Below, piece by piece: positions 61,947-64,000 of a stretch of DNA of 64,000 bases. The stretch is from Escherichia coli. GTDB lineage: Bacteria; Pseudomonadota; Gammaproteobacteria; Enterobacterales; Enterobacteriaceae. The DNA lies in NCBI RefSeq assembly GCF_030013595.1, contig NZ_CP122768.1. One strand, given 5' to 3'. The notes below the pieces were generated by a model, which was not told the origin of the DNA, searched no databases, and worked only from the letters and a program-made list of their open reading frames with translations. The translations under genes were made by a program, and so were the position numbers. Positions within the stretch are counted from its first letter, which is position 1; each line of letters begins with the position of its first letter.

Positions 61947-63368
61947 TTACAATAACCATTCCACAGGCAATATCGACGCCAGTCTGACCATAACCCGCTT
62001 CCAGAAACTGGTGGCGGGTTCTTTTTTGAGAACAATCTCTTTCTTTGCATGACGATCAACCCAGTTGATCCGTCCCCACCTGTCCAGACGGAGCTGCCAG
62101 GCCGCATCATACTGGCTCTGAATAAAGCGTTTATCAATTAACTGTGCCAGCGTTTCGCTCTCTATCACGAAGCCCATTTCAGTATTGAGCAATGTTGAAC
62201 GCGGATCGAAATTGAAAGAGCCGATAAACACCGTTTTACCATCGATGCTAAAGGTTTTAGCATGCAGGCTGGCACCGGAATTACCGGTTATGCCGCGATC
62301 GTGTAACGTACTACTTTGTTCACGCGTCGGCTTGAGTTCATATAATTCCACGCCGTAGCGGAGCAATTTTTTGCGCCAGCGTGCGTATCCGGCATGGACG
62401 ACAGCAACATCGTTAGCGGCAAGAGAATTGGTTAGGATCGCAATCTTTACCCCTTTTCTCACCATCCGTAAGAGTTGCGCCACACCTGCGCGTGTCGGTA
62501 CAAAATAGGAAGAGATAATATCGATGCGTTCACTGGGTGAGCCCATGATATCGAACAGGCGCTGCGGTAACAGTGAATGCCGTTTTGCCTTGCCTTCCCC
62601 TTTCGCCGGATCATCACTTAATAAACGTGTTTTCGCCCAGATAAGCGGCAACGTTCCATCAACCAGATGATTTATAAACGGGCTGGATTCCATTTTGCGT
62701 AAATAACGATGCGTCATGGCATCGTTGTGCCAGGATGCTGGTAACTCGATGCGATCCGCCATTTCACCTTCCGGGACATCCAGCACCTGCTGTAAGGGTG
62801 AAACCGATTTGCAATACCAGTAGCGGGCGAAATCATCGGCAACGTCCTCTACAACTGGTCCTATTGCCATGACATCTAAATCCGAAAAAAGTGGCTCTTC
62901 CCCTGCCCCAAAATAGGCATCACCAATATTTCGCCCCCCTACCAGCGTCACCACGCCATCAACAGTGAAACTTTTATTGTGCATACGGCGATTGAGACGG
63001 GAAAAGTCGGTGATATAACCAAGCGGACGTAGCAAGCGAAACGAGAAAGGATTAAAAAGCCGGACTTCAATGCGGGGATGACTGTCAAGCAAGCGTAAAA
63101 TGTCGTCAAGTCCGGGTGTATTGTTGTCGTCCAGCAACAAACGGACGCGAACGCCACGCTTTGCTGCGGCTAACAGGGCGGAAAACAGTAACCGACCCGA
63201 CATATCGTCCTGCCAGATGTAATACTGAACATCCAGCGTATGCTCTGCCATTTCGGCCAGACGATACCGGGCGGCAAACGCATCCAGACTTTTCTCCAGA
63301 GGGAAAAGGCCACACTGACCGGGATGTTGCGAACACAGTGGCAGCACCGCGCTCGCCAGCCGGGGCAA
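61947..63368 (-). CDS. clsC: Cardiolipin synthase C (phospholipase D family; YmdC)
   Basis: ORF 61947..63437 (-); two HKD motifs (HNKSFTVDG, HAKTFSIDG); start placed at in-frame TTG (63366-63368), 9 nt after an AAGGAG RBS, giving 473 aa; the in-frame ATG at 63375-63377 directly abuts the RBS. Confidence 0.88.
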   Translation of the reverse strand: MPRLASAVLPLCSQHPGQCGLFPLEKSLDAFAARYRLAEMAEHTLDVQYYIWQDDMSGRLLFSALLAAAKRGVRVRLLLDDNNTPGLDDILRLLDSHPRIEVRLFNPFSFRLLRPLGYITDFSRLNRRMHNKSFTVDGVVTLVGGRNIGDAYFGAGEEPLFSDLDVMAIGPVVEDVADDFARYWYCKSVSPLQQVLDVPEGEMADRIELPASWHNDAMTHRYLRKMESSPFINHLVDGTLPLIWAKTRLLSDDPAKGEGKAKRHSLLPQRLFDIMGSPSERIDIISSYFVPTRAGVAQLLRMVRKGVKIAILTNSLAANDVAVVHAGYARWRKKLLRYGVELYELKPTREQSSTLHDRGITGNSGASLHAKTFSIDGKTVFIGSFNFDPRSTLLNTEMGFVIESETLAQLIDKRFIQSQYDAAWQLRLDRWGRINWVDRHAKKEIVLKKEPATSFWKRVMVRLASILPVEWLL

Positions 63369-63369
63369 A

Positions 63370-63903
63370 TCATTCATCTCCTTGTTGGGTAAGGAGTCTT
63401 TCGTAGAGGTGGGTGTTTTCTTCATCATAACAGACAAAGTATACCTGTTCGGGTAAAGCGTGACGGGTAATAAATTCTGAAACGGTTTTTACTGCGATTT
63501 CAGCCGCTGCCGCACGAGGGTAACCATAAACCCCAGTACTGATTGCAGGAAATGCCACTGACGTATAGCTGTTTGCCGCCACCAGTCGCAGACTATTGAG
63601 ATAGGCATCCTGCAAAAGCTGGTCTTCGTTTTGTTCACCACCACGCCAGACTGGCCCGACGGTGTGCACTACGGCTTTAGCGGGAAGATCGCCTGCAAGC
63701 GTAATAACGGCATGCCCCGTAGGGCAATCGCCCTGCTGTTGCCTGACTTTTAAACAGGCATCCAGCAGAGCCGGACCCGCTGCGCGATGAATGGCCCCAT
63801 CGACGCCGCCGCCTCCCATTAATGACGGATTAGCCGCATTCACAATCACATCAACGGCCAGTTTGGTAATATCACCCTGCACAACATGAATACGCGTTTT
63901 CAT
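63370..63903 (-). CDS. ymdB: Macrodomain O-acetyl-ADP-ribose deacetylase YmdB
   Basis: ORF 63370..63903 (-), 177 aa; [25 protein letters not shown] macro-domain N-terminus; stop 1 nt before the clsC start. Confidence 0.93.
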
Positions 63904-64000
63904 AACGCCTCCTTACACCTTCTTGTTTCTTAAGTGTACAGCAGGCTTTTTGGTTAAATCGCATTTTTCTGCTCAGCAAGGTGAGTTGTTCAGAAACTTA

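Follow-up and report, generated by a model that had tools for sequence, protein, structure and literature searches.

Competing candidate start codons for clsC at the ymdB-clsC junction of Escherichia coli

As the start of clsC, a pair of ATG codons inside the ymdB gene is at least as well supported as the TTG just beyond the ymdB stop, at which the K-12 annotation begins ClsC. The junction lies in a 64,000-nucleotide stretch of Escherichia coli DNA (contig NZ_CP122768.1), here called the window. The evidence comes directly from the anatomy of the region, from a conflict between RefSeq gene models, from the distribution of start codons and the synonymous constraint among relatives, and from published TetRP and INRI-seq numbers. 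Our preferred reading, which we regard as about an even call, makes the upstream ATG the main conserved clsC start and the TTG at most a weaker one, dependent on translation of ymdB. There would then be two in-frame clsC initiation regions, the conserved one being the ATG doublet at 63428-63423 (minus strand), which has no SD. This doublet would be the main and ancestral start, yielding a ClsC of 492 or 493 amino acids whose first ~20 residues would be encoded by the ymdB tail in a different frame. The TTG at 63368-63366 would be at most secondary, active only while ribosomes translate ymdB, either by re-initiation after the ymdB TGA or through ymdB ribosomes opening a CUCCUU/AAGGAG hairpin; the ATG adjacent to AAGGAG would not be used. 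We infer both that the E. coli copy of the upstream site is still used as a start and that use of the TTG depends on coupling.

The ymdB-clsC junction and its gene models

The ymdB gene (63370..63903, minus strand) encodes an O-acetyl-ADP-ribose deacetylase with a macro domain (177 amino acids); it is present in the ORF list and annotated in both PCN033 and MG1655. Its SD, GUAAGGAGGC, is strong (-12.1 kcal/mol), and ymdB gives strong initiation peaks in both INRI-seq (PMC9825163) and Ribo-RET. The ymdB stop codon TGA (63372-63370) is followed by a single T (63369) and then by the TTG. Upstream of the stop, the ymdB codons CAA GGA GAT contain the SD-like hexamer AAGGAG (63383-63378, minus strand), whose duplex with the 16S 3′ end is -8.5 kcal/mol and whose last G is spaced 9 nt from the TTG; the hexamer occurs at chance frequency, the window holding 20 of them where 20.4 are expected. 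Abutting it with zero spacing is an in-frame ATG (63377-63375, minus strand; position -9), from which the product would be 476 amino acids. The sequence-only reading, which had proposed that clsC most likely initiates at the TTG rather than at this adjacent ATG, described the arrangement exactly: AAGGAG abutting ATG, TTG 9 nt on, the ymdB stop 1 nt before it, and a product of 473 amino acids. A further ATG, out of frame, overlaps the ymdB stop as ATGA (63373-63371, minus strand) and opens a 67-aa ORF (63373..63170); no INRI-seq peak is listed for it (PMC9825163).

The clsC frame is open upstream as far as a TTG at 63437, and within this extension lies the ATGATG doublet (63428-63426 and 63425-63423, minus strand; positions -60 and -57). 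It is written in the ymdB codons TAT GAT GAA (Tyr159 Asp160 Glu161), within the last 19 codons of ymdB, and is followed by A-rich codons (AAG AAA). Counted to the clsC stop at 61947-61949, the ORF has 473 codons from the TTG, 476 from the adjacent ATG and 493 or 492 from the doublet. The predicted N-terminus of the long form is M(M)KKTPTSTK, and that of the TTG form is MPRLASAVLPLCSQHPGQCGLFPLEK. The two forms would have masses of about 55.9 and 53.7 kDa, respectively, and the upstream ATGs correspond to MG1655 positions 1106295 and 1106298. The doublet has no SD, the best match being CAGGUA (-3.8 kcal/mol), 13 nt away; directly 5′ of it is a conserved U-rich element, GTATACTTTGTCTGTT (63429..63444, minus strand), which contains TATACT (63443-63438).

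RefSeq holds two incompatible models of clsC. The short model, from the K-12 MG1655 annotation, corresponds to 61947..63368 (minus strand), with a TTG start and 473 amino acids; in MG1655 itself the gene is 1106355..1107776 and begins 2 nt after the last ymdB base. The long model, given by RefSeq/PGAP for PCN033, the strain of this window, is 61947..63428 (minus strand), with an ATG start, 493 amino acids and a 59-nt overlap with ymdB. The 493-aa model is found in every non-K-12 E. coli record that we inspected, and the large E. coli protein clusters are likewise of 493 amino acids; we found no ClsC-specific model in NCBIfam that might account for PGAP's start choice. The TTG is the curated MG1655 start, so the claim for it is not new. 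The other non-ATG starts put forward for the window agree with MG1655 as well: ndh with TTG (2236-2234, minus strand), and hinT (6436-6434), ycfJ (705-703) and yceM/mviM (41476-41474) with GTG. The MG1655 annotation gives four more within the window, namely thiK GTG, plsX TTG, yceQ GTG and flgI GTG.

Variation within the species is unable to discriminate between the start models: of 5422 E. coli genomes, 3777 share one and the same 60-mer across the SD and TTG, and none of the seven variant alleles inspected alters AAGGAG, either ATG, the TGA or the TTG. YmdB-ClsC fusion proteins of 651-653 amino acids were set aside; they arise from mid-ymdB frameshifts and are uninformative on the start.

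Start codons and synonymous constraint among relatives

Start codons were compared at 28 loci with overlapping ymdB and clsC, and synonymous diversity was measured across the ymdB genes of 30 species. At the codon homologous to the TTG (site 0), the C. freundii complex has ATG; E. fergusonii, C. sedlakii and C. amalonaticus have TTG; E. albertii has TTA; Salmonella has AAA; and the Enterobacter group has AAC, AAT, AGT and others. Four of the five species in the TTG group retain TTG, although six leucine codons are possible. The geometry of stop, one nucleotide and start is present at 12 of the 28 overlapping loci (one further locus has an ATGA overlap), and Cedecea, Buttiauxella and Dryocola show it with GTG or TTG; in C. 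werkmanii site 0 is the only possible clsC start. This geometry, with its exchanges of start codon across genera, argues that at least some relatives do initiate at site 0.

Along with the curated MG1655 annotation, the SD duplex and its workable spacing, these patterns favor the view that ClsC is the 473-aa protein, begun only or mainly at the TTG by means of AAGGAG and coupling to ymdB termination, with the upstream element serving as a start elsewhere or having some other function. We consider this possible but rather doubtful. The SD is not conserved among the TTG species: AAGGAG is found in E. coli and E. fergusonii only, E. albertii has AAGGCG, and most relatives have GGC or GGT. In E. 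albertii neither the TTG (now TTA) nor the SD survives, yet clsC is full-length and intact there, at 93% identity.

Only the three species of Escherichia have the adjacent ATG; at this position C. sedlakii reads ACG and C. amalonaticus AGG, and the codon is missing from all non-Escherichia relatives. For it to start a 476-aa ClsC, ribosomes terminating at the ymdB TGA would have to slip back 5 nt and re-initiate. ATG is the strongest type of start codon, and this one is in reach of the terminating ribosome and is the closest start to the conserved protein core in E. albertii; however, with its zero SD spacing, its narrow distribution and no alternative INRI-seq peak reported at it (PMC9825163), we judge such initiation very improbable. 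In preferring the TTG to this ATG the sequence-only reading is supported, the TTG position being start-bearing in some relatives and curated in MG1655.

Its broader claim, that the TTG is the most likely clsC start, is not secured against the ATG doublet 57-60 nt upstream, which it had not weighed and which is the RefSeq start here, the sole start in many relatives, part of the most constrained stretch of ymdB and the site of a TetRP signal. Eight of the 28 overlapping loci lack any in-frame ATG, GTG or TTG over the 40 nt that precede the first conserved ClsC residues. The relatives whose sole canonical start is the upstream ATG are Salmonella (where the junction reads TGA TAA A ACA CGC CTG), Lelliottia, Leclercia, Cronobacter, Pseudenterobacter, Enterobacter ENT03, Superficieibacter and I. 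alba. Between the internal start and the conserved core, the clsC frame is open at 27 of the 28 overlapping loci, the sole exception being C. werkmanii, whose frames are shifted by an indel.

Synonymous diversity within ymdB is lowest at codons 155-162, with a value of 0.49 against a gene mean of 0.76 (30 species). Only two degenerate ymdB codons are invariant: Tyr155, which is TAC in 24 of 24 species, and Tyr159, which is TAT in all 19 Tyr-bearing species; the other ymdB Tyr columns mix TAT and TAC. It is the Tyr159 TAT, with the G that follows, that forms an ATG of the clsC frame. An exact copy of the 19-mer TATACTTTGTCTGYTATGA is shared by 17 species (13 named genera), E. coli and Salmonella among them, and by one isolate whose genus label is doubtful. 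On our preferred reading the synonymous constraint would reflect a translation initiation region; the conserved element could have a different role.

Decay of the element is restricted to two clades, the C. freundii complex and Cedecea/Buttiauxella/Dryocola, and both carry ATG or GTG directly 3′ of the ymdB stop, while the element is intact in five of five TTG or TTA species. That it is undecayed in all TTG species and decayed where a strong ATG or GTG lies at the stop counts against the TTG as the only or main start, the association of decay with start class being one of two independent clades only. In Yokenella and Phytobacter, ymdB and clsC are separated by ~130 nt, and clsC is still preceded by a copy of the ymdB tail that has decayed; it retains ATATA(A/C)T, 9 nt and then ATGACAATA, and in the Yokenella copy the clsC frame alone is open. 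In I. alba ymdB is a pseudogene and the element is retained. Beyond the element, codons 162-177 have a synonymous diversity just slightly under the gene mean, and the N-terminal extension of ~20 residues, which is hydrophilic and has no evident function, appears free to vary in sequence. Where it precedes an A-initial codon, Leu171 is always CTT or CTC; the four other Leu codons would put a stop in the clsC frame.

Initiation data and RNA structure

The only published initiation-profiling signal for clsC is the TetRP signal at -57: depths in three samples are 0, 30.1 and 16.1 at this ATG, and 0, 0 and 5.7 at the TTG (PMC4909307). Its authors considered the -57 signal inconclusive, since it lies inside the strongly translated ymdB (PMC4909307). 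INRI-seq, an in vitro method that detected 70% of annotated starts overall, gave 0 CPM at the TTG in five of five replicates (PMC9825163); its clsC transcript includes the SD and TTG, and the -57 ATG falls outside it. Ribo-RET has no ClsC peak at the TTG (where the value is 0) or at the upstream ATG, but growing cells express clsC poorly, its expression belonging to stationary phase or high osmolarity, and this absence is therefore weak evidence. For this poorly expressed gene the proteomics of the TetRP paper and TRAINSPOTTER likewise hold no ClsC N-terminal peptide, and we found no ClsC entry in the supplements of Giess 2017 and TRAINSPOTTER; the Meydan 2019 preprint names neither gene.

Zero initiation in vitro and almost zero in TetRP speak against the TTG as the main start. 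If, however, the SD is masked by CUCCUU, the INRI-seq zero would become a sign of coupling dependence. The hexamer CUCCUU (63396-63391, minus strand), from the ymdB Leu170-Leu171 codons, is complementary to AAGGAG, and a hairpin of 6 bp with a 7-nt loop is predicted in both the MFE and centroid structures of 63353-63402; from this folding a putative masking of the SD may be proposed. The fold of the SD region is statistically ordinary when set against shuffled sequence (z = -1.4, not significant), a point against the TTG as the main start. The ATG doublet lies under a weak predicted hairpin that is likewise not significant (z = -0.5).

A further alternative is that both starts are used at comparable levels to give proteoforms of 492/493 and 473 amino acids, perhaps dependent on conditions, for example on ymdB translation. 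Each site has independent comparative support, sample 3 of the TetRP data has depth at both (16.1 and 5.7), and that study reports dual starts in many E. coli genes (PMC4909307). Against this, ribosomes initiated upstream would occlude the TTG site, and the 20-residue hydrophilic extension is of a freely varying sequence with no evident function. We think such balanced use unlikely, and the reading that we prefer keeps the upstream ATG as the main start.

Other roles for the conserved element were also considered. TATACT is located 9 nt 5′ of the ATG, and its counterpart in the decayed Yokenella copy is TATAAT. An internal promoter at TATACT gained no support: the sigma-70 scan was empty and there is no credible -35. 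No TSS was found at the element coordinates in the Cappable-seq supplements examined, and promoter activity as the other role of the element is of low probability. Rfam gave no match within 63000-64000.

Significance and comparison with known systems

ClsC is the third cardiolipin synthase of E. coli. Clones in which ymdB is present produce larger amounts of ClsC, "by an unknown mechanism" (PMC8027125), and the position of the clsC start bears directly on why they do so. Tight coupling of ymdB and clsC, as the sequence-only reading had predicted, is plausible, and it agrees with this reported rise in ClsC when ymdB is present in cis. The cis effect also favors initiation at the TTG: were clsC begun there, its coupling to ymdB translation would account for it. 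If instead the start lies inside ymdB, every construct that follows the K-12 annotation omits the native initiation region and expresses a ClsC missing ~20 residues, and the upstream start could be the reason that ymdB DNA in cis raises ClsC levels. The ymdB product itself is reportedly not required, to judge from the title of a 2024 paper by Sawasato & Bogdanov. We put forward tentatively, as something less than probable, that the K-12/UniProt ClsC (473 aa, TTG) is truncated, with the real conserved start located 57-60 nt within ymdB. Were this true, the long-standing puzzle of why ClsC requires ymdB in cis and yet can do without the YmdB protein would come down to an artefact of annotation. 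Apart from these points, the case is one of ordinary start-site annotation.

Translationally coupled pairs with juxtaposed stop and start include trpE-trpD, trpB-trpA (UGAUG) and galT-galK. Like these, ymdB and clsC are adjacent on the same strand, with a start 1 nt past the stop and an SD inside the upstream ORF, and their geometry is conserved across genera with ATG, GTG and TTG exchanging. Unlike these, the clsC SD is not conserved, a second candidate start that is better conserved occurs 57-60 nt farther 5′, and clsC coupling is putative. In rpmI-rplT and MS2 coat-replicase, coupling proceeds by unmasking of a sequestered ribosome-binding site. The clsC case is similar in that AAGGAG is predicted to pair with CUCCUU in ymdB and the isolated clsC transcript is silent in vitro; it differs in that the predicted hairpin is short (6 bp), statistically ordinary and specific to E. 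coli and E. fergusonii.

Long out-of-frame overlaps offer another comparison, and lpoB-thiK, in the same window, overlap out of frame by 20 nt. As in such overlaps, the clsC frame is open throughout, the start is built from ymdB codons, and ymdB synonymous sites are constrained around it; in contrast to overlaps of the lpoB-thiK type, at 59 nt this one is long for E. coli and is without an SD, and PGAP accepts it whereas the curated K-12 record does not. Finally, infB, clpB and cheA each yield a long and a short proteoform from two in-frame starts. A further such gene is speA (PMC9825163). As in these four genes, clsC has two in-frame candidate starts, 57-60 nt apart and each partly supported; in contrast to them, the two ClsC products are hypothetical.

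The ymdB-clsC junction and its annotation

The window is E. coli DNA: its segment 63150-63650 is 100% identical to strain PCN033, and 5423 of the 5426 complete E. coli genomes carry it. On the minus strand the last codons of ymdB (63903-63370) read ...CAA GGA GAT GAA TGA; its Gln-Gly-Asp codons form an AAGGAG hexamer (63383-63378), followed with zero spacer by an ATG in the clsC frame (63377-63375), the ymdB stop TGA (63372-63370), one base, and a TTG (63368-63366) that begins 473 codons running to the stop at 61947-61949. The sequence-only reading, which had clsC initiate at this TTG rather than at the adjacent ATG, described these elements accurately in every detail. AAGGAG is unremarkable by number, with 20 copies in the whole window against 20.4 expected. 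The clsC frame is open upstream as far as the TTG at 63437, and contains an ATG doublet inside ymdB (63428-63423), 60 and 57 nt upstream (-60 and -57) of the TTG start candidate; these candidates are absent from the sequence-only reading. An out-of-frame ATG (63373-63371, minus strand) overlaps the ymdB stop as ATGA, a classic coupling motif, and opens a 67-aa ORF (63170-63373) in the +1 frame relative to clsC.

The TTG conclusion is not new, because the curated MG1655 record for clsC (b1046, NP_415564.2; 1106355..1107776, with ymdB ending at 1106353) already has exactly that TTG and 473 aa. RefSeq PGAP instead starts clsC of this strain 60 nt further upstream, at ATG 63428-63426, giving 493 aa and a 59-nt overlap with ymdB. 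This incompatible 493-aa model also stands in each of the seven further non-K-12 E. coli records examined, and dominates the large protein clusters. The start conflict is an annotation question already present in databases. Four macro domain-ClsC fusions of 651-653 aa from E. coli-like and Salmonella-like Logan assemblies (P0001, P0002, P0010, P0011) are mid-ymdB frameshifts whose reading runs on through MMKK... in the clsC frame; an assembly error or a ymdB pseudogene is the probable cause.

Other non-ATG starts proposed from the sequence, TTG for ndh and GTG for ycfJ, hinT and yceM/mviM, all match the MG1655 annotation, which has four more on the minus strand: thiK (GTG, 5061), plsX (TTG, 20700), yceQ (GTG, 23819) and flgI (GTG, 32046). 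thiK overlaps lpoB by 20 nt.

The TTG site and adjacent ATG in relatives

The adjacent ATG lies in frame directly after AAGGAG, with no spacer to this Shine-Dalgarno (SD) sequence, and is confined to E. coli, E. fergusonii and E. albertii, the codon being ACG in C. sedlakii and AGG in C. amalonaticus. The preference for TTG over this ATG is thus upheld, and we consider it very improbable that the adjacent ATG is the clsC start.

In several relatives the TTG position has the character of a start. It holds TTG in E. fergusonii, C. sedlakii and C. amalonaticus, and ATG in five C. freundii complex genomes. One of these ATGs must serve in C. werkmanii, where, after an indel, the upstream frame meets a stop at -12 and this ATG is the only possible start; it overlaps the ymdB stop as ATGA. 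In the separate clade of Cedecea, two Buttiauxella and Dryocola, ymdB ends 15 nt earlier, and its stop is followed by 1 nt and then GTG, or TTG in B. izardii. From sequence comparison, this recurring geometry of stop, 1 nt and start, with start codons exchanged, looks like a re-initiation site. At this locus E. albertii (ClsC identity 93%) is nearer to E. coli than E. fergusonii (82%); the one E. albertii genome compared has TTA for TTG and AAGGCG for AAGGAG, and keeps full clsC and the conserved U-rich element that in the window (63429-63444) lies directly before the ATG doublet.

Conservation of the upstream ATG doublet

Eight overlapping loci (Salmonella, Lelliottia, Leclercia, Cronobacter, Pseudenterobacter, Enterobacter ENT03, Superficieibacter and Intestinirhabdus) have no in-frame ATG, GTG or TTG in the 40 nt ahead of the first conserved ClsC residues (T/P-R-L), so that only the ATG cluster of the ymdB codons Cys-Tyr-Asp-Asp/Glu-Glu-Asn can serve there. 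In several further loci the near start is limited to a poorly placed GTG or TTG.

Thirty ymdB genes were aligned by codon and their synonymous diversity scanned in 8-codon windows; the minimum of the whole gene falls at codons 155-162 (0.49; mean 0.76). Just two degenerate codons are invariant, Tyr155 TAC (24/24) and Tyr159 TAT (19/19), while the remaining Tyr columns mix TAT and TAC; Tyr159 TAT with the G of the Asp codon makes the upstream ATG. An exact copy of the 19-mer TATACTTTGTCTGYTATGA occurs in 17 species, E. coli and Salmonella among them. Before an A-initial codon, Leu171 is written CTT or CTC without exception; each of the other four Leu codons would create a stop in the clsC frame. 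At Thr146 (~63466-63468, 39 nt 5′ of the internal ATG), one of five near-invariant ymdB codons, 22 of the 23 Thr-bearing species have ACC.

Some loci have ymdB separated or broken. In Yokenella (L092:572-700) and Phytobacter (L019:1317-1500) the distance from ymdB to clsC is ~130 nt, and the gap holds, 5′ of clsC, a decayed duplicate of the ymdB 3′ end that keeps ATATA(A/C)T, 9 nt and ATGACAATA. In the Yokenella remnant the clsC frame alone is open; TATAAT stands there in place of TATACT. The ymdB of Intestinirhabdus alba (L011:1296-1500) is a pseudogene readable only over its last ~60 codons, and despite this the conserved element and upstream clsC ATG survive.

Two clades alone show synonymous-site decay of the element: part of the C. 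freundii complex, and Cedecea/Buttiauxella/Dryocola. Each carries a strong ATG or GTG right 3′ of the ymdB stop. Wherever the TTG position reads TTG or TTA (five species), the element is intact. This pattern, which counts only two independent decay events, suggests that a TTG at that position does not remove the need for the upstream element.

Initiation data and possible mechanism

Tetracycline-inhibited ribosome profiling (TetRP) lists clsC, as ymdC, with a new candidate start at ATG -57, with depths of 0, 30.1 and 16.1 against 0, 0 and 5.7 at the annotated TTG; the authors were undecided whether the signal is real, because the site is inside strongly expressed ymdB (PMC4909307). The in vitro initiation profiling of INRI-seq used synthetic transcripts, that of clsC beginning 30 nt upstream of the TTG (PMC9825163) and therefore including CUCCUU, AAGGAG, ATG and TTG and excluding the -57 ATG. 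The TTG gave 0 CPM in 5/5 replicates, with 70% of annotated starts detected overall; the sole alternative clsC peak was a weak CTG at +69, none being listed for the out-of-frame ATG 63373-63371. In vivo Ribo-RET also gave 0 at the TTG, in a data set where just 18% of starts were seen (PMC9825163). The peptide sets searched contained no N-terminal peptide of ClsC.

The sequence-only interpretation is supported in part. The TTG is the known K-12 start and preferable to the adjacent ATG; the ATG doublet inside ymdB is the more conserved of the candidates, and no other has any initiation signal. We put at about even the chance that the upstream ATG is the main clsC start in E. coli; that the TTG has this role is possible but doubtful, and comparable use of the two starts seems improbable.

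AAGGAG pairs with CUCCUU (63396-63391, ymdB Leu170-Leu171 codons) in the predicted minimum-energy structure. Such a hairpin would limit the TTG site to moments when ribosomes translate ymdB, and SD masking would account for the INRI-seq zero; we infer this masking step, as the hairpin is short and statistically ordinary. The upstream ATG is not preceded by an SD (the best match, CAGGUA, is -3.8 kcal/mol and 13 nt away), so it would need SD-independent initiation, and would act as such a site in a U-rich, then A-rich, context. A role of TATACT (63443-63438) as the -10 element of an mRNA with a very short leader was considered and found no support.

The ymdB product is reportedly not required, going by the title of a 2024 paper. 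The wider point here concerns the cis effect of ymdB on ClsC: clsC clones containing ymdB yield more ClsC, by a mechanism left unexplained in a 2021 review (PMC8027125), and for this effect two testable explanations are now offered.
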